Shown piece after piece: positions 1,422 through 14,627 of a stretch of DNA of 64,000 nt. Source of the DNA: Acidobacteriota bacterium (GTDB taxonomy: Bacteria; Acidobacteriota; Vicinamibacteria; Vicinamibacterales; UBA8438); the NCBI GenBank assembly GCA_011523845.1, contig WTFV01000155.1, forward strand, positions 9,386-73,385, in the 5' to 3' direction. Numbering within the stretch: position 1 is the first letter of the stretch; every line of letters begins with the position of its first letter. The position numbers were made by a program, and so were the translations under genes. A model generated the notes under the pieces. It saw nothing but the letters and a program-made list of their open reading frames with translations. It searched no databases and was not told where the DNA came from.

Positions 1422-2684
1422 TCAGTGCACCGTCTTCGTCTTCTTGTCCATGTAGTCCATCAGCACGTAGCGCCCCAACGTGTACGGTGTCGTGAAGTAG
1501 GCCTTGCCCCGGCAGACGGCCGCCACGCGTCGCACGAAGCTCACCAGCTCGTAGTCGCGGGCCAGCATGAAGGTGTTGATCATGATGCCGGCGCGCCGGC
1601 AGTTGGCCACCTCGGCAAAGGTCTCGCGGATGATCGTCGGGTCGAGCCCGAACGCGTTGCGGTAGATGCGTCCGTCGGCCTGGGTCAGGGCCGAGGGCTT
1701 GCCGTCGGTGATCATCACGATCTGCCGCATGTCCTTGCGCTGGCGTTCGAGGATGCGCCGGGCCAGGCGCAGTCCCTCGCGCGTGTTCGTGTAGTACGGC
1801 CCGACACGCACGCGCGCGAGTTGCTTGAGCGGTATCTCCTCCGCCGAATCGTGGAACAGGACGGCGTTCAGGGCGTCACCGGGGTACTGGCTGCGGATCA
1901 GGTGGGACAGCGCCAGAGCCACCTGCTTGGCCGGCGTGAAGCGGTCCTCGCCGTAGAGGATCATGCTGTGGCTGCAGTCGAGCATGAGCACCGTCGCGCA
2001 CGAGCTCTGGTACTCGCCCTGCGCGACCATCAGGTCCCGGTACTGCACGTCGATGGCTCCATCCTGTCCGGCCGGCGCCCGCTGCACGGCGTTCAGGATG
2101 GTGCCGCTGGCGTCGAGGTTCAGGGTGTCGCCGAACTCGTACGGCTTCGAGGCGCCGCCCGCCTCCACGCCGGTGGCCAGCTCGCACGTATCGTGCCGGC
2201 CGACGCTGCTGCGCCCGTGCGACCCGAGCAGGTCGCGCAGGGCCCGGTAGCCGAGAAAATCCAGGCTCTTGTCGGTGACCTGAAAGCGCGCCGGGGAGGT
2301 GTCCCGCCCGAAGCCGCCGCCCGTGCCCGACTCGGGTGGGGCATCGGAATCCAGCGAGATGTAGCCCTGTCCGGCCAGTTGACGGATCAGCTCCTGGATG
2401 AGCTCCTCCAGTCGGGACTGCCCGCCGGCCTGATCGGCGTCGGCCGGATCGCCGAGCAGGCGCTGGATGGCGTCGTCCGAGAGCAGGCCGCCGTTGAGCA
2501 GGGCGTCGAGAATCGCATCGTGCAGGGACTGCAGGCTCCGGTCGTCGTCGTCCCCGTCCGACGGGTCGCCGTAGGGGCTGTCGAAGCCGCTGGACAGGAG
2601 CAGGCGGGAGAGCTTCGAGACCAGCTCGTCGAGGTCGATGCCCTCGAGATCCTCACCGGTGTAACGCGTGTAGCGATAGCGCAT
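1422..2684 (-). CDS. von Willebrand factor A (vWA) domain protein
   Basis: 420-aa ORF. It has a MIDAS-like DCSHSM motif ([14 protein letters not shown]) and ITDGKP, plus an acidic linker region. It lies immediately downstream of a BchI/MoxR-like ATPase. Confidence 0.8.
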
Positions 2685-2693
2685 CCGCCCGCG

Positions 2694-4190
2694 TCAGTTG
2701 TAGTACTTCTTCTTGTTGCCGCGTGGCATCTGCTGCCGGGGATCGAAGTCGGGCACGGACGGTCGAGCGGCCGGCTGCGGCTTCTCGACCGCTTCGTAGC
2801 CGCCGCCGTCGCTGCGGCTGATCCTGCGCTGGGCGCAGAGTCCCTCCAGCACGAAGTCGACGGCCGAGGCGACCTGCGACGGCGCGTCGCCGGCCGCGAC
2901 GCCGGCGTGCGCGGCCAGTTCCAGCAGTCCATGGATCTCCGCGACATCGGCGAGAAAGGCCTCGGACGACGTCGTGTCGCTCTCGTGCAGCGTGCCGCCC
3001 ATCTCGAACCACTCGACCACCTGGTGCGTGTCGACGCCGTCGTACCAGCCGCCGAAAACGGCCCCGACGGCGGCGCGAATCAGCTCGCGCGCAACGGCGT
3101 CGGCCCCGCGCAGCTCGCCCTCGTACTCCAGCTCGAACTTGCCGGTCATCGCCGGCAGCGACGCGTACACGTCGGTGACGCGGGCCGTCGGGGCTTCGTT
3201 GGCCGTCAGGGCGCGGCGCTCGGCGTTCGACACCACGTTCTCGATGCACGTGATCGGCATGCGCTGGCTGACTCCCGAGCGGCCGTCGATCTTCTTGTTC
3301 GCCCGTGCCTGGAAGGCGATCTCCTCGACCACCTCGCGCACGTAAAGCGGGACGCTCACCTCGGTCGCGGCGCCGCGCGCGACCCATGCCTCCTGCTCGG
3401 TGATGGCGATGGCCTCGTGGCGGGTGCGCGGATAGTGCGTCCGGATCTCGGAACCGATCCGATCCTTGAGCGGCGTCACGATCTTGCCCCGGGCCGTGTA
3501 GTCCTCGGGGTTGGCGGTGAACGTCATGGCGATGTCCAGCCGCAGGCGCACGGGGTAGCCGCGGATCTGGATGTCGCCCTCCTGCAGGATGTTGAACAGG
3601 CCCACCTGGATCTTGCCCGCGAGGTCGGGCAGCTCGTTGATGGCGAAGATGCAGCGGTTGGCGCGCGGCACGAGCCCGTAGTGGACGGTCAGCTCGTCCG
3701 AGAGCCGGCGCCCCGCCGCGGCCGCCTTGATGGGATCGATGTCGCCGATCATGTCGGCGATCGTGACGTCCGGCGTCGCGAGCTTCTCGACGTAGCGCAT
3801 CGAGCGGTCGAGCCAGGCGACGGGCAGGTCGTTTCCCTCTTCCTGGACCCGGGCGCGGCACGCGGGGCAGATCGGCGCGAGCGGATCGTCGTTGATGTCG
3901 CAGCCCGGCACCACCGGGATCGCGTCGTCGAGCAGATCCGCCAGCCCCCGGATCAGACGCGTCTTCGCCTGGCCCCGCAGGCCGAGCAGCACGAAGTCGT
4001 GCTGCGAGAGGATGGCGTTGGCCACCTGCGGGACGACCGAGTCGTCGTAGCCGACGATGCCGGGAAAGAGCGGCTCGCCGCTCCCCAGCCGGGCCATGAG
4101 GTTGTCGCGAAGCTCGCGCTTGACGCTGCGGTGGGGAATCTTGCCCTTGTCGACCGCCCGACGCAGGCTCCCCAGCGAGGTGGGCAGCAT
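2694..4190 (-). CDS. AAA+ ATPase of the Mg-chelatase BchI/MoxR-like type, partner of the vWA protein
   Basis: 498-aa ORF. Walker A-like LLGLRGQAKT and Walker B-like CIFAINELPDL are present. The FNILQEGDIQIRGYPVRL block is typical of chelatase-like AAA+ proteins. Confidence 0.8.
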   Translation of the reverse strand: MLPTSLGSLRRAVDKGKIPHRSVKRELRDNLMARLGSGEPLFPGIVGYDDSVVPQVANAILSQHDFVLLGLRGQAKTRLIRGLADLLDDAIPVVPGCDINDDPLAPICPACRARVQEEGNDLPVAWLDRSMRYVEKLATPDVTIADMIGDIDPIKAAAAGRRLSDELTVHYGLVPRANRCIFAINELPDLAGKIQVGLFNILQEGDIQIRGYPVRLRLDIAMTFTANPEDYTARGKIVTPLKDRIGSEIRTHYPRTRHEAIAITEQEAWVARGAATEVSVPLYVREVVEEIAFQARANKKIDGRSGVSQRMPITCIENVVSNAERRALTANEAPTARVTDVYASLPAMTGKFELEYEGELRGADAVARELIRAAVGAVFGGWYDGVDTHQVVEWFEMGGTLHESDTTSSEAFLADVAEIHGLLELAAHAGVAAGDAPSQVASAVDFVLEGLCAQRRISRSDGGGYEAVEKPQPAARPSVPDFDPRQQMPRGNKKKYYN

Positions 4191-4218
4191 GCACCGATCT
4201 TACTAGAATCCCCCTGCC

Positions 4219-4300
4219 CGCCAATCGTCGCCTGCGGCTCGGCTTGCCGCCCGACCGACCCTTGCTGGAAGTCTGCCCCGTTCTACGGCGCAGACTCCCA
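4219..4300. repeat. Composite intergenic repeat (family B followed by family A hairpin)
   Basis: CGCCAATCGTCGCCTGCGGCTCGGCTTGCCGCCCGACCGACC followed by CTGGAAGTCTGCCCCGTTCTACGGCGCAGACTCCCAG. The same B+A arrangement occurs at 25211-25297 and inverted at 40681-40764. Confidence 0.75.
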
Positions 4301-4323
4301 GGGCCGCCCGCGGCGGCCGGCCA

Positions 4324-4352
4324 TTGCCGCACGGCGCGGCCATCGCTACAAT
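4324..4352 (+). promoter_or_regulatory. Candidate sigma70-type promoter for the PFOR gene (TTGCCG - 17 nt - TACAAT)
   Basis: -35-like TTGCCG at 4324-4329 and -10 TACAAT at 4347-4352, about 150 nt upstream of the ATG at 4503. Confidence 0.4.
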
Positions 4353-4371
4353 GCGGGTGGAACAGTGGACC

Positions 4372-4486
4372 GGTGCGCCGACCGTCGGTTGGCGTGCGGT
4401 GTCGATACGGCCGGGCCGGTTCGAAACGGGGTGCGCCGACCGTCGGTCGGCGTGCGGTGTCGATACGGCCGGGGCTGGTTCGAAAT
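4372..4486 (+). repeat. Two tandem ~58-bp direct repeats in the PFOR leader
   Basis: GGTGCGCCGACCGTCGGTTGGCGTGCGGTGTCGATACGGCCGGGCCGGTTCGAAAC occurs at 4372-4429 and is repeated with a few mismatches at 4430-4486. Each unit contains a CGCCGAC/GTTGGCG stem. Confidence 0.85.
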
Positions 4487-4502
4487 CCCTGGAGAACCTC
4501 GC

Positions 4503-9206
<4,704 letters not shown>

Positions 9207-9260
9207 CGGCGGAGTCTCCGAAGGGATGGGGCGCTGAAGGCCAGGGGCGATGGCGGGCGG

Positions 9261-9452
9261 TTGCGGCTCGACGCGCCCTGCTCGTTGCCGGAAGGAACGG
9301 TGTTGGATCTCGTCCTCGACGATGAAGGCGACGACCTGGACGCTACCGAGCGCGAGGGCCTTCACGACGCGATTTCCAGTGCCTGGACGGCCGCGAAGGC
9401 GGGACGTGTCCGTCCGGCGCAGGAGATCATCGACGCGTTGCGCCGCCGGTGA
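9261..9452 (+). CDS. Small antitoxin-like protein paired with a ParE-like toxin (start uncertain; TTG 9261 or CTG 9234)
   Basis: 63-aa ORF with an acidic centre (LDDEGDDLDATEREGL). Its stop overlaps the downstream GTG start (GTGA at 9449-9452). Confidence 0.5.
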   Translation: MRLDAPCSLPEGTVLDLVLDDEGDDLDATEREGLHDAISSAWTAAKAGRVRPAQEIIDALRRR

Positions 9453-9757
9453 CCGCAGTCGTCGTCGTTTCCGGTGACGTCGAAGTCCAGATCGGCGAGA
9501 TCGACCGTTGGCGGGAACACCGGCCGGCCGCGCTGGGACCCTTCGTGGAAGAACTGGCAGCCTGCTTCGACTTGCTGGCTACTGCTCCGTACGTCGGTCG
9601 ACGCTATGCTCATCCTCGATTGCGGGATGTTCGCCGTATGCTTCTACGTTCGACCGGCTACCACGTCTACTACACCGTTCGCGACGAAGCCGTTGTCGTG
9701 CTCGCGGTCTGGAGGGCCTCCCGGGGAGCCGGCCCCGATCTGCCCCGGCTGGTCTGA
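9449..9757 (+). CDS. parE: ParE/RelE-superfamily type II toxin
   Basis: 102-aa ORF. The C-terminal pattern LLRSTGYHVYYTVRDEAVVVLAVWRASR is typical of ParE. It overlaps the preceding small ORF by 4 nt. Confidence 0.7.
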   Translation: MTAVVVVSGDVEVQIGEIDRWREHRPAALGPFVEELAACFDLLATAPYVGRRYAHPRLRDVRRMLLRSTGYHVYYTVRDEAVVVLAVWRASRGAGPDLPRLV

Positions 9758-9809
9758 TTCCATGCCGTAGTACGGGGTCGGGGCTGGGCGAGCCAGCAGG
9801 CGACAGACG

Positions 9810-9823
9810 GTTTTGTACAAAAC
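9810..9823. promoter_or_regulatory. Perfect 14-bp palindrome GTTTTGTACAAAAC, candidate operator upstream of the GHKL gene
   Basis: Read directly. It is AT-rich in a GC-rich genome and lies 30 nt upstream of the ATG at 9853. Confidence 0.35.
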
Positions 9824-9852
9824 GGCCAGCATGCTCAGGACTGTTCTCACGC

Positions 9853-12320
9853 ATGAGTACCGACTATTCAACATCCAGACGGGCCGGAGATGAACTCATC
9901 ATCAATGAGGCCCAGAGTCAGGTACAGACGTTCTTCGATCAGCTCAAGAACGGCACGCCGAACTACCGGACCGTCGCCAGCCTCGACGGACAGGTGGCAC
10001 AGGAGTACCGAGGACGGTGCATTCTGGAGCTTCTGCAGAACGCCCACGACGCACTCGCGAACGCCGAACCGGGTGATCCGCGGCGCATCTCGTTCGTACT
10101 GAACACCGATCCCGAACCTGTCTTGTACATCGGAAACAGTGGCCGTTCATTCCGCACCGCGGACTTCCATGGAATCTGCCGGCTCGCGCAAAGTCCGAAG
10201 GATCCCAACGAGAGCGTTGGGAACAAGGGGCTGGGCTTTCGGAGTGTCCTGGAGATATGTACGGGCCCGGAGATATGGTCCACGGCGTCCGTCGGAAGCG
10301 GCACGTCCTTTGTCTTCCGTTTCGACCCCGACGTTGCCCGTGAAGTCGCGGAAGCAGCACGGCAGCTCGAAGAACAGGGCCTCGATGCACGCTCACCGTT
10401 CGATCCGGGTCGTCCGCTCGTCGACTGGTCACGGGATCAGTTGAGTCGGTACCTTGAACGCGTATCCAACGAAGAGATCGATGGCCCCGGCGAGGCCAGG
10501 GACTTCCTTTCGCCGTACCAGATTCCGCTTCCCATTGCGGGCATGCCGTCCGAAGTGGACGCGCTGTTGAGCGCGGGGCATGTGACCGTCGTCCGGCTGC
10601 GTCTGGATGGTGGAAGGGCGGGCTCCTGCGACGAGGCCGTGCAGTCGGTCAAGGACCAATTGCAGGATCTGGATGCCCGGTCGACCATCTTCCTGCATCA
10701 CCTTGCAACACTCGTCATCGACATAGATGGCGAGCGTCGCATGCTGGAACGCACGGTCGACTCGGATACTGTCCTCCCCGGTTGCCCATGTAGCTGGCGG
10801 CAGCGGCTGCGCGTGGCGGGCTCCGGACCGGCGGCTGATGACACGCCGACCCGCCAGTTTCACCTTTGGTCTCACATCGTCGGCGGGCAGGATGATCCGG
10901 ATCAGAGTGCGCGGATCCGCGCTGTCGTGGAGCACTTGCCGAACCGCTGGCCGGAGGTCTGTCGGGTCTCCGTGGGGGTTGCCGTCGAGGAAGCGCCTAC
11001 GGCTGCGGCAGGGGTCTTCGTGATCTTTCTGCCGACCGAGATGAAGACCGGAACGGGGGCGTACATCAACGCGCCCTTCTATGGTTCTCTTGACCGCCGC
11101 CAGATAAACTTCGACGAGCCCTACAACGAACTGCTTCTCGAATGCGTGCTTGACCTCTGTCTTGACGCCGTCGGTGCATTGGTGTCCCGGAAGCCTGAAG
11201 ATTGGAGTGCACAGGCGGTGGTCGATCTGCTGTCGTCGACCACGACGGTGGACGGTGAGGATTGGCGCCTGATCGAAGACCTGCAAGATCGTGCGTCGAA
11301 GCGGGGCACCCCACTCGGCGATCGTGCGCTGGTTCTCTGCGACGGCGGCTGGTGCGCTCCGGCCGGCGCAAGGGTAATGCCTGACGTTTCGGACGACGAC
11401 CCGATCGGTCCCGAACGGTGGCGCGAGCACGCTGGGTTCGAGGTCGTGTCGACCGTGCTTGGTGGACGAGGGACCGCTGTCGAAACACTGCTCACGGATC
11501 TCGATGGCTCGCCGAACCCGTCGCATCAAGAGTGGCGAGACACCGTCGAGCGGTTGGCGTTGGAGGTCGAGGCGCGCAACATAGACGTTACGTGGGACGC
11601 CTTCCTGAACAGTCTCGTCTCCGTGCTTCCGGCGGACCTGCGTGGGGAGCCGAAACCGGATGGTTCGGACCCGCTTGCCGATGCGAGCTTCCTGCCCACT
11701 CAGGACGGGGGTCTGGTCAGCGCAGATCCCGATAGCGCCAAGTTGTTCTTCCAGCCCGTGCGGGGAGTTGACGACGCGGCAGATCTAGTGCGAGAGGTTC
11801 CCGGTTCTCTGCAGGATCGGATCGCGTTCCTCCATCCGGATGTGCGAACGCACGAACAAGAGGGTTCACGGCGGCGCACTCCCGTTCAGAGGTTCCTTGA
11901 CGGTCGGTTCGCGTGGGGCTTTCGGAGGGAAGACATCCTCCGGGATGTGGTCATTCCGGCCCTACCTCCGTTGCCGGCTCTTCATGACACCCCTGAAGCT
12001 GACCGCTGCTCAGAGATCTTCGCTTGGACGTTGAGGCTTCTCGGCAGCGATGACGCGGATACGTTGCTGCCTCTGATCAGGCGCCTGCCCGTTGCTTGCC
12101 ACGGCGGTTGGCTTTCGATGGGCGCCGCCGTCTTCGGGCCCGGTTGGCCGGATCGGCTTGGTGACCTCGTCCGATCGCTCGCGGACGAACTGCCCGATCG
12201 AGCGGCCAAGCGGCTGCGCAGAACGGCGCTTCTGCCGCCGGACGATCCACGCTGGGGGGGCGTCGTGGAAGATCGGGGCGAACTGCTCGCCCGCGCCGGA
12301 GTGGTTGATGGACTTCGGCT
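9853..12320 (+). pseudogene. Sacsin-like GHKL (HATPase_c_3-type) ATPase, N-terminal ~820 codons; reading frame degenerates near 12.30-12.33 kb
   Basis: ATG at 9853. GHKL N-box ILELLQNAHDA and G-box GNKGLGFRSVLE are present. After about 12300 the frame yields Arg/Pro-rich text that is antisense to a minus-strand gene. Confidence 0.6.
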
Positions 12321-12322
12321 GC

Positions 12323-12910
12323 GGCGAACGCGTTGTCCGCCATCTCATACGCCACACCGGCCTCGTCGAGGCGACGCGCCAGCCAGTTGTGGCGGTTGAA
12401 GTAGACCTGCAAGCGAAACGGCGCCCAGGTGGGCACCCGTACGTAGCACAACCCGAAGACCTCGTCGATGAAATAGAAATAGTAGTGCAGGCACTTGCCA
12501 GTGCTGGGCTTCAGCGATGTCTGGTGTGTCTTCTTGTCATGCCAGGGACGAAACGACGCACAGGTCTCCATCGCCGAGAAGATGTGCACCAGACCGGGAT
12601 GATGGCCGCGTTCTTCGAGGATCTCCTTCACCCGCTGTTCCTTGCGGAAGGCTTTGTGCTTGCGAATGAATTCAATCGCAATCCCGGCCTCGGCCGCGAG
12701 GCGTTCGGCATTGGTGCGTATGTCATCGCGCAGCGGTTGTGCCCAGAGCGGGTAATCGAACAGCCGGACACCGCGACTGCCGAGATACCCCGCCATGGCT
12801 GCGGCATGACCGATATCGGGCAGCGTTCCCGTGATCACGACGCGATCGAAGCAGGAGATGACACCAACAATATCGTCCTGATGACGCTCCACGAATGGGC
12901 CGATCGTCAT
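12323..12910 (-). pseudogene. 5' portion (~195 codons) of a conserved hypothetical gene, 3'-truncated; it sits between the GHKL part and the DUF3883 part
   Basis: ORF 12077..12910 reads as a plausible protein (VISCFDRVVITGTLPDI, CYVRVPTWAPFRLQVYFNRHNWLARRLDEAGVAYEMADNAF) down to about 12323. Beyond that it becomes Arg/Pro/Ala junk. Confidence 0.45.
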
Positions 12911-12953
12911 GGTTCCCCCCGGATCGAGACACGCTACGTTCGACCAGTGTACA

Positions 12954-13625
12954 ATGAACTTTGGTTCCGGCTACGCCGGGTTAGGTGGTACGGCGAGCTA
13001 CGGGGAGCTCTTCGAGCGTCTCAGCAGTCTCACCGACCCAGACGGCCCGCGTGCAAGCAAGGACAGGTTCACGCCGCTGGCCGAAGTACGCCCGACCAGC
13101 GGGCGCCGTGGTGGTCGTGGTGGCGGCGGAGGTAAGGGAGGCAAGACATCGCATCTGCACCCCTCGGCCGAACTTCGCGAGCTCGTGGGAATCGTAGGGG
13201 AGATCCACGCGTACCGTTTCCTGCGCAAGGAGTTCGGAGAGGACGTGACGTCGGACGCGTGGGTTTCCGAGATCCGACTGAAGGTCCTGCCGCTGGTGGC
13301 GGGGGAGCAGGACGACACGAGCGACGGGCACGGCTTCGACTTTCGGTTCCGTTACAACCGGAAGACATGGTGCGTGGAGGTGAAGGCGACCTCGGGAGAC
13401 GACACGCAGTTCGATCTGGGAAGTACCGAGATCAACGCGGCAACCCGTCTTGCCCGCAAGCGAGGCTGGCGGTGGCGAATCCTGCGGATTCGCAGCGCGC
13501 TGTCTGAGCGGCCGGAATTGGATTGGCTTCCCAACCCGTTCGAGGAGGGCTTCGGCAAGCACTTCCGGCTGCGTCGAGGCGGGATGATGGTGTCCTACGC
13601 GCATAAGAAGGCCCGGACCGGTTGA
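12954..13625 (+). CDS. DUF3883-like (restriction-endonuclease-fold) domain protein with an RGG/Gly-rich linker; possibly the detached 3' end of the GHKL gene
   Basis: ORF 12909..13625, with an internal ATG at 12954. GIVGEIHAYRFLRKEFG ... GHGFDFRF ... WCVEVKATSGDD ... FDLGSTEINAA fits the DUF3883 core pattern as I recall it. Confidence 0.55.
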   Translation: MNFGSGYAGLGGTASYGELFERLSSLTDPDGPRASKDRFTPLAEVRPTSGRRGGRGGGGGKGGKTSHLHPSAELRELVGIVGEIHAYRFLRKEFGEDVTSDAWVSEIRLKVLPLVAGEQDDTSDGHGFDFRFRYNRKTWCVEVKATSGDDTQFDLGSTEINAATRLARKRGWRWRILRIRSALSERPELDWLPNPFEEGFGKHFRLRRGGMMVSYAHKKARTG

Positions 13626-13643
13626 GGCGAGGAGGCACAGCGC

Positions 13644-14313
13644 ATGCTTCGACCCCGCGCGGACATGCTGTCGCCGGCGCAACAGCGGCTCTGGCGGGAG
13701 TTGGGTGGTACGCCGGATGACTTCGTGCTTTACGGTGGCACAGCGCTCGCCCTGAGGCTCGGTCATCGGCAGTCGATTGACTTCGACTTCTTCTCCTCGG
13801 CCCAGGTGGATTCGACTCGACTGTTGCGCGAGGTCTCGTATCTTCAGGGAGCGGAAGTGGTGCAGCGCAGTCTCGATACGTTGACCTGCATCGTGGATCG
13901 CGCCGGTCCGGTGCGGGTCTCGTTCTTCGGCGATCTGACCCTACGCCGCGTTGCGGACCCTGATTCCCTCGCGGACCCCCTCGTGAACATCGCGTCGCCG
14001 CTGGATCTTGCCGCGATCAAGGCGGAGGTGGTGCAGGTTCGCGCAGCCGCCAAGGACTACCTGGACATCGATGCGCTGATTCACCGCGCCGGCGTTTCCT
14101 TGAGTGATGTGCTCGGCGCCGCACGTGCGGTGTTCGGTCCGGCGTTCAACCCCATGCCGACCTTGAAGGCGCTGTGCTTCTTCGCCGACGGACCTGGCCA
14201 CGCTGCCTCACGACGTGTGCCGGCGCCTGGTCGATGCGGCCTCTGCGGTTGATCCGACGAAGTTGCCGAGCTTCGAGTCTCTGGCCGGTGTCGCACCGGG
14301 AGCGTCATGCTGA
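13644..14313 (+). pseudogene. AbiEii/AbiGii-like nucleotidyltransferase (DUF1814-type), frameshifted near 14188-14192
   Basis: FVLYGGTALALRLGHRQSIDFDFF is the typical NTase motif. At GCCGACGGACCTGGCC the called frame turns to junk and stops at 14252. The +1 frame continues as DLATLPHDVCRRLVDAASAVDPTKLPSFESL to a TGA at 14311-14313, which overlaps the next ATG. Confidence 0.6.
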
Positions 14314-14627
14314 ACCCGGAACCGCCGGCAGAACTGCTGCGCGTTGCAGAACGGATGGTGTGGTTCAAACCGCCGGAGGAGACGCTGGCCGATCCGGTGC
14401 TCTTCCTGAGCCACCTGATGACTTACGGCACGGTCGATGACCTCCGCGTGGTGCGGACGCATTTCACCGACGAACAACTGCGCCAGGTTCTGCACGCCGG
14501 TCTGCCGGGCGTCTTCGATGCGCGGTCGTGGGCGTACTGGCACGCCGTGCTCGACGTCCGGCCGGTGCCGCCCCTGCCTACGAGGCGTCTGGCAGGCGTG
14601 GACGATGCGCAGTTCCCGCCGCGTTGA
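14307..14627 (+). CDS. Hypothetical protein, 106 aa, coupled to the NTase gene
   Basis: The ORF has protein-like composition (VWFKPPEETLADPVLFLSHLMTYGTVDDLRVVRTHFTDEQLRQVL). Its ATG overlaps the restored stop of the upstream gene (ATGCTGA). Confidence 0.5.
   Translation: MLNPEPPAELLRVAERMVWFKPPEETLADPVLFLSHLMTYGTVDDLRVVRTHFTDEQLRQVLHAGLPGVFDARSWAYWHAVLDVRPVPPLPTRRLAGVDDAQFPPR

Follow-up and report, generated by a model that had tools for sequence, protein, structure and literature searches.

The prototype study of the antiphage system Tiamat is reportedly that of Millman et al. 2022. Tiamat is a single-gene system, encoded by tmtA, with a prototype from Bacillus cereus (bioRxiv 10.64898/2026.09.30.754977, the source also of the statements on TmtA that follow in this paragraph). 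TmtA comprises an N-terminal Hsp90/MutL-like ATPase, a central region of TPR-like, Fold B and metalloprotease-like parts, and a C-terminal DUF3883 nuclease of the PD-(D/E)xK type, and it is predicted to form dimers by way of its two end domains, as other GHL clamps do. The B. cereus system gives modest protection against T5 and T6, hydrolyses ATP, cleaves single-stranded DNA (ssDNA) at defined sites and nicks double-stranded DNA, and its defence is abolished by mutation of the ATPase glutamate E44; phage protection and these enzymatic activities are known for B. cereus Tiamat only. Isolated DUF3883 domains can also nick DNA, as reported for HmaA in the passage of that preprint that cites it. 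Arabidopsis NO VEIN (NOV), to which a companion preprint ties Tiamat (10.64898/2026.09.30.755639), and human sacsin have both been described as Tiamat homologues: the two share the GHKL (sacsin-type) ATPase, and NOV also ends in NOV_C/DUF3883. However, both are eukaryotic, have additional domains at the N-terminus and act in development or in neurons, and the homology is at family level only. Here we describe a copy of tmtA in a 64,000-nt stretch of contig WTFV01000155.1 from an Acidobacteriota bacterium (assembly GCA_011523845.1); the whole stretch is called the window, and positions are given in its numbering. The copy, at 9853-13625, is very probably a recently lost pseudogene, made by an insertion sequence (IS) at a CCTA site in the linker ahead of the nuclease domain and then by a deletion of ~3.2-3.4 kb.

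Both ends of the Tiamat protein are recognisable in the window. The N-terminal open reading frame (ORF) matches Pfam SACS (E 2.5e-8) and NCBIfam P_loop_sacsin (E 1.4e-18), the sacsin N-terminal ATP-binding-like domain, and keeps the Bergerat motifs ELLQNAHDA (E59/N63) and GNKGLGFRS, which are conserved with the orthologues. It thus has the motif-I glutamate and the glycine-rich loop of the Tiamat GHKL ATPase, with E59 equivalent to E44 of B. cereus. The C-terminal part matches Pfam NOV_C/DUF3883 (PF13020, E 4.6e-6) and retains the nuclease motif D...EVK, with GFDF...VEVKAT aligning with the orthologues. Against the 1782-position PADLOC model of TmtA (PDLC03971), the N part covers positions 12-784 (E 2.5e-129) and the C part positions 1584-1779 (E 2.4e-44). 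The central region of TmtA (DUF3684, with its TPR-like folds, Fold B and metalloprotease-like fold) is not present, and unlike Tiamat the two parts do not form one polypeptide: they lie in different frames, 660 bp apart around an IS scar, with ~800 central residues lacking, and the copy is almost certainly inactive as judged from its sequence. It also differs from the prototype as a high-GC orthologue of actinobacterial type whose sequence is remote from that of B. cereus. The preliminary description of this DNA had treated the architecture as one without established function in bacteria; that statement is out of date, since TmtA has been reported as an ATPase and ssDNase (bioRxiv 10.64898/2026.09.30.754977).

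A genus-mate (G014) carries an unbroken copy free of stops: the open frame spans 2,008 aa and the encoded protein 1,832 aa. This protein is 57-60% identical to the window parts, shares with them both Pfam SACS and NOV_C, and has the three-part architecture of Tiamat, matching PDLC03971 end to end (positions 14-1781 of 1782, E 1.6e-234). Between the N part in the window and its orthologues, amino acid identity is 57-77%. An 823-aa query made from it found 107 relatives in the protein collection, which carry SACS as their sole domain annotation and are of erratic length; all those that are sufficiently long align through query residue 823 and then run on, and the window protein is therefore truncated there. 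Two metagenomic relatives show the same long architecture as G014. In L004, a product of 1,403 aa overlaps the NOV_C product of 440 aa that comes after it, a split that is likely a frameshift in a contig labelled 4x; in L005, a 1,338-aa product, an IS3-type element and a 371-aa NOV_C product follow one another.

The middle of the gene is missing from the genome altogether. The window keeps G014 residues 1 to ~830 and 1628-1830; ~800 residues (2.4 kb) are gone, and the lost codons, roughly 831-1627, are those of the TPR-like/Fold B/metalloprotease-like region. We searched the assembly of the organism itself (7.59 Mb, 279 contigs, 99% complete) by tblastn with the G014 protein and obtained only residues 1-850 and 1628-1830, both on contig C240, and otherwise distant paralogues; residues 851-1627 had no match anywhere in this assembly. 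The middle segment of tmtA from a sister species (G006), used as a DNA query, likewise found nothing there, and neither the window nor the rest of the assembly has anything that corresponds to TmtA profile positions 785-1583. Because only two pieces are found and the middle is absent, the ancestral gene had ~1,830 codons and the lesion is an insertion plus a deletion. A rearrangement in place of a deletion was considered and rejected, the tmtA middle and the 3' part of the IS both being absent elsewhere in the assembly.

We mapped the junctions of the lesion by DNA alignment with G006 and with IS elements. At the left junction, 12325/12326 (codon 824), homology switches from G006 and the orthologues to the IS: tmtA ends in TGCGGC(G) and the IS begins with (G)AACGCG at IS codon 195, with 1 bp of microhomology. 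Since it lies inside both partners, this junction is a deletion end point. At the right junction, 12985/12986, G006 reads uninterrupted as ...TTCGAAGTAGG/TGGTTCGGC and the window as ...GCCGGGTTAGG/TGGTACGGC; the empty site of G006 reads ...GAAGTAGGTGG... where the window has the IS end. The IS end abuts a CCTA target (TAGG on the plus strand) in the Gly/Arg linker, which makes this an authentic transposition junction. The last four nucleotides of the IS span, 12982-12985 (TAGG), may belong to the target. A start of the C part at 12927, suggested by a tblastn match of the form 'TFD...F..G', was rejected, as the G006 alignment and the IS termini identify 12911-12985 as IS leader; the 'TFD' match at 12935-12943 is a chance one inside the IS terminus.

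The DNA between the two tmtA pieces has a GC content of 0.595, against 0.689 for the window, and holds a minus-strand IS fragment of 195 codons (ATG at 12910), preceded by a leader at 12911-12985. Compared with full 1.64-kb multi-copy elements (L028-L030), the fragment is 82% identical in amino acids and 80% in DNA, and protein homology stops at residue 195. The reverse complement of 12959-12985, CCTAACCCGGCGTAGCCGGAACCAAAG, is identical at 27 of 27 positions to the left ends of the same three elements. From this terminus and the DNA identity of the ORF, we conclude that 12326-12985 is the left 40% of such an IS, antiparallel to tmtA; its right ~980 bp are missing from the window.

In the history that we propose, an IS of ~1.64 kb first inserted at CCTA, antiparallel to tmtA and within the disordered linker that precedes the nuclease domain, a step shown by the authentic IS left terminus that abuts tmtA and by the empty site of G006. 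A single illegitimate deletion of ~3.2-3.4 kb, with 1 bp of microhomology, would then have removed ~980 bp of the IS and ~2.2-2.4 kb of tmtA (codons ~825-1627). What is left is a stump of the ATPase, 660 bp of the IS as a scar and, in another frame, the orphaned nuclease tail. Three points weigh against this reading. The deletion end points are observed in the alignments, whereas that insertion came before deletion is something we infer from the sequence; both junctions are read from the draft assembly alone; and the ATPase stump or the orphan nuclease, each with its motifs and open frame kept, may retain residual activity.

Other accounts of the locus were weighed against the same evidence. 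Two open halves flanking ~660 bp of foreign DNA are what one would expect if a GHKL-DUF3883 gene of ~1,050 codons had been cleanly interrupted with nothing lost. We give this account practically no credence: intact orthologues and the TmtA profile are ~1,780-1,830 positions long, profile positions 785-1583 lack a counterpart in the assembly, and the sister species keeps 2.2 kb of the middle at the syntenic place. That the sacsin-like ATPase (~820 aa) and the DUF3883 nuclease are stand-alone products of two genuine genes is very improbable. Each part does have a start codon and an open frame, and isolated DUF3883 domains can nick DNA, as cited for HmaA. However, no homologue ends near residue 820, the ATPase frame finishes in antisense IS sequence and the nuclease frame begins inside the IS leader, and the G006 synteny shows one ancestral gene. 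Chimeric joins at 12325/6 and 12985/6, for which a draft genome of 279 contigs gives some room, are also very unlikely to explain the structure. The site lies mid-way in a 142-kb contig, its right junction is an exact IS terminus at a CCTA target, and the rest of the IS and the tmtA middle are on no other contig, so that there is nothing to mis-join.

A single step deserves more weight, unlikely as we consider it: one-ended or aberrant transposition would have left 660 bp of the left end of the IS while deleting the adjacent 2.4 kb of tmtA. One precise element end combined with an arbitrary internal end is the typical product of one-ended or rolling-circle-type events, the element lacks inverted repeats and has a hairpin end, and 1 bp is all the microhomology that the other junction shows. 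On the other hand, illegitimate deletions of the simple kind, with 0-2 bp in common, are frequent, and fold searches with the IS protein gave only a TBP-like fold. Insertion followed by deletion is the simplest history. Much of the preliminary description stands. The GHKL frame does turn into Arg/Pro codons near 12300-12330, with DUF3883 in another frame (right to within a few tens of bases), and the insert given there as ~0.65 kb measures ~660 bp (12326-12985). The proposal that both ORFs are pieces of one ancestral GHKL-to-DUF3883 gene broken by foreign DNA is borne out by G006 synteny and by homologues that span both parts in a single polypeptide, such as the 1,832-aa protein of G014; homologues ending near residue 820, which would have spoken for two genes, were not seen, all long-enough matches continuing. 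Other parts need amendment. The C-part ORF placed at 12954-13625 does encode DUF3883 and a Gly/Arg linker, but tmtA homology starts at 12986/12987; the gene was not one of ~1,050 codons, the intact form having ~1,830 with ~800 middle codons deleted here; the split is not a clean one by an insert but an insertion plus a deletion; and the insert is indeed foreign but not anonymous, being a truncated IS.

Close relatives place the loss in time. The window aligns with the syntenic genus-mate G006 at 90-92% over 2668-9812, and the alignment resumes downstream of tmtA. In the G006 orthologue (L026 7025-13660, the syntenic counterpart of window 9812-13843), frame shifts are present, the middle (2.2 kb) is retained, and nothing corresponds to window 9813-11787, which holds the first ~645 codons; an IS21 of 3 kb (IstA/IstB) sits at the equivalent of window 13029-13031, ~45 bp from the IS site of the window. 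Two different ISs are found in the same short linker of tmtA in two species. A lesion inherited in common with G006 was rejected, given the empty IS site, the different IS (IS21) 45 bp off and the different deletion. For two tmtA segments compared between the window and G006, the ratio of nonsynonymous to synonymous substitution (dN/dS) was 0.26 (177 codons) and 0.135 (194 codons), with dS ~0.3. These values indicate purifying selection for most of the time since the species split, and therefore recent and independent inactivations. In G004 (L027 5552-6112), only the first ~190 tmtA codons are present, 74% identical in amino acids and 77% in DNA to the window and not syntenic with it. The genus is represented by 15 genomes, one with an intact tmtA and three with remnants of it. 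A metagenomic locus, L005 (8001-15303), holds a tmtA homologue (50% amino acid identity) that an IS3-family element (rve, HTH_Tnp_1) has divided; genes for a DEAD helicase, Fic and an N6_N4 methyltransferase lie nearby. The L005 and G006 copies resemble that of the window in having a mobile element upstream of or within the nuclease-domain region; the window IS differs from theirs in belonging to a family that annotation libraries do not recognise, and here a later deletion took most of the IS together with much of the gene.

The locus is most likely non-functional for Tiamat defence, because the linking and substrate region is gone, the two parts are in different frames and their ends run into IS sequence. 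The middle region presumably holds the substrate and connects the dimerising ends with each other. For the orphan nuclease ORF, a promoter search gave a single consensus match (12926-12955), which lies downstream of both candidate ATGs and is at chance level.

The IS fragment itself belongs to a widespread family. The 195-codon fragment has no Pfam, NCBIfam or meaningful PHROGs match. Over 210 aligned residues, its protein shares 51% identity with a 504-aa plasmid protein that bears the annotation 'ArsR family transcriptional regulator' and whose sole recognisable part is a C-terminal winged helix-turn-helix (wHTH; HTH_5/MarR-type matches). By a scan with one genome per species, we confirmed at least 559 loci with relatives of the IS protein, in Gammaproteobacteria, Chloroflexota, Planctomycetota, Acidobacteriota, Actinomycetota and one ANME-2 archaeon; they often occur in many copies per genome or on short contigs. 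Full copies measure 1,638-1,689 bp and are 96.8-100% identical within a genome or between close metagenome-assembled genomes (MAGs), with abrupt divergence outside: L034/L035/L036 are 99.8-100% identical over 1,644 bp, and L057/L060 99.1% over 1,689 bp. Near-identical copies with such sharp boundaries mark the relatives as insertion sequences.

The left end of these elements consists of CCTAACC, a hairpin with a 5-bp stem (CCGGC-NNN-GCCGG) and AACCAAA, ~75 bp before the ATG. Across many phyla, 33 elements conserve this motif. Pairing in the hairpin reaches 96.9%, with compensatory changes at two of the five pairs (CTGGC/GCCAG, GCGGC/GCCGC), and its covariation score was reached by none of 500 shuffles. 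In the relatives the right end reads ...GTAAGGGACTA, finishing in ACTA, and CCTA precedes the left end; no terminal inverted repeats were found in the full elements. The window piece has the left end of the family and is not a complete unit, and mobility is seen for the relatives only. The right end and the wHTH, present in the relatives, are absent from the window and from the genome of the organism, where the fragment is single copy and the remainder of the element is lacking.

The only other relative in this genome is a 23-29% identical paralogue on contig C28. It is one open 554-aa copy (C28:8705-10108, L003) of a distant actinobacterial subfamily (23-30% amino acid identity), which forms discrete multi-copy units of 1.85-1.88 kb in other genomes (L016/L017 in G001, L018/L019 in G012, L020 in G004). 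These units are bounded by CTAG...CTAG or GTTAG...GTTAG, with a hairpin GAGGC-TGC-GCCTC right after the left CTAG, and G004 has two identical copies head-to-tail with 5 bp in common (GTTAG). The best matches of the window fragment itself are in Gammaproteobacteria MAGs (81-82% amino acid identity, L028-L032; terminus 27/27), and no close copy of the IS was found in 40 relatives of the host, the best being 30% identical (34% in one short contig match). In sequence terms, this distribution points to a recent cross-phylum arrival that would have left no living copy in this genome. One of the gammaproteobacterial copies (L032 3926-6804) is itself broken by a ~1.2-kb insert: it is 2,879 bp long instead of 1,638 bp, and the break shows a repeat of ~12 bp.

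The nature of the IS protein was approached through sequence families and predicted structure. No recognised transposase family (DDE, HUH, serine or tyrosine; ISfinder families as modelled in NCBIfam and Pfam) was matched: Pfam, NCBIfam and PHROGs assigned neither the fragment nor a full 505-aa relative nor a 549-aa actinobacterial paralogue to a family, with matches limited to C-terminal HTH_5/MarR-type ones, and PDB sequence and PDB profile searches with the IS protein came back empty. AlphaFold gave models with a predicted local distance difference test score (pLDDT) of 87 for a full-length relative and, for its first 400 residues, a pLDDT of 91 and a predicted TM-score (pTM) of 0.88. The modelled protein has two beta-sheet/helix lobes followed by the wHTH. 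By Foldseek against the PDB, archaeal and eukaryotic TATA-binding protein (TBP) came top in both probability and TM-score (1mp9_B, prob 1.0, TMt 0.59); for the core model, the lowest E-value belonged to the di-domain ARO/CYC entry 4xrw (5.8e-4), but with prob 0.66 and TMt 0.22. For the tail, the matches are MarR/ArsR regulators. Rep_trans (PF02486) gave no Pfam match at E<=1, and no Rep_trans structure is among the top 50 Foldseek PDB matches; searches of BFVD returned weak matches to the model, among them an Inoviridae 'REP' (E 9e-4). A Rep_trans assignment was not confirmed by these searches. The IS protein thus models as a TBP-like double beta-saddle plus a MarR/ArsR wHTH.

The parent IS resembles IS200/IS605 and IS91-type elements in lacking terminal inverted repeats, in the hairpin by one end, in the short boundary sequences and in having a single ORF. 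It differs from them in its ~505-aa protein, in which Pfam, NCBIfam and PHROGs detect no signature of the HUH/Y1, Y2, DDE or serine-recombinase kind. We consider the chances about even that the insert is the relic of an undescribed, cross-phylum class of IS with a TBP-like plus wHTH protein, its one-ended truncation reflecting an unconventional transposition, possibly of rolling-circle or ssDNA type, and its donors being Gammaproteobacteria-like.

The features of the locus are collected in Table 1. The full open frame that holds the ATPase part runs from 9508 to 12399. The GC content of the window is 0.69 and dips to 0.58-0.66 over ~9.6-15.4 kb. Within this stretch, tmtA lies among toxin-antitoxin (TA) and abortive-infection (Abi) genes, a likeness to Tiamat as a defence gene: a ParE-toxin gene (PF05016), after a 63-aa putative antitoxin, precedes it, and a short AbiEii-like nucleotidyltransferase (PF08843) follows. 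Together with the low GC, these flanks look like a small defence/TA islet, common to G006. After the AbiEii-like gene comes a 106-aa ORF without family match, present also in G006; its homologue in G014 (L025 5361-5660, 75% identical) immediately precedes the intact tmtA and shares an open frame with it. This ORF may be a recurrent companion of tmtA.

Table 1. Features of the disrupted tmtA locus and its flanks, in window numbering; a slash marks a junction.
Feature	Position	Strand	Description
ParE-toxin gene with 63-aa putative antitoxin	9261..9757		Upstream of tmtA
tmtA 5' remnant, codons 1-824	9853..12325	+	ATG at 9853; GHKL/sacsin-type ATPase, transducer, start of central region
Tail of the truncated tmtA frame	12326..12399	+	24 Arg/Pro-rich codons, antisense of the IS fragment, then stop at 12397-12399
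Truncated IS	12326..12985	-	Left terminus, 75-bp leader, codons 1-195 of a ~505-codon ORF (ATG 12910)
IS left end	12959..12985	-	CCTAACCCGGCGTAGCCGGAACCAAAG; 5-bp-stem hairpin at 12967-12979
tmtA 3' remnant	12986..13625	+	Gly/Arg linker, NOV_C/DUF3883 PD-(D/E)xK nuclease, stop codon
Chimeric 238-aa open frame	12909..13625	+	26 codons of antisense IS leader, remainder tmtA nuclease tail; probably not a real gene
Chimeric 277-aa open frame	12077..12910	-	195 IS codons, then 82 codons of antisense tmtA
Junction sequences			Left TGCGGC/GAACGCG; right GGGTTAGG/TGGTACGG
AbiEii-like nucleotidyltransferase gene	13644..14252		Downstream of tmtA
106-aa ORF	14307..14627	+	No family match

The object described here is an ordinary decayed copy of a known defence gene, not a new system, and its recognition corrects an annotation trap: what reads as a 'sacsin-like ATPase' and a 'DUF3883' protein is one dead Tiamat gene. 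Within one genus, tmtA is intact in one species and has been destroyed independently in three others by four kinds of lesion, a picture of rapid defence-gene turnover. The only unusual element of the locus is the IS family, present here as a dead fragment. The scar is another sighting of a widespread family to which Pfam, NCBIfam and PHROGs are blind and whose proteins are annotated as ArsR/MarR regulators, and its conserved left end, CCTAACC-hairpin-AACCAAA, lets fragments be called IS scars rather than 'hypothetical' genes. If the family is indeed an undescribed class of IS, the locus would show such an element caught destroying an antiphage gene after its transfer into a high-GC genome.

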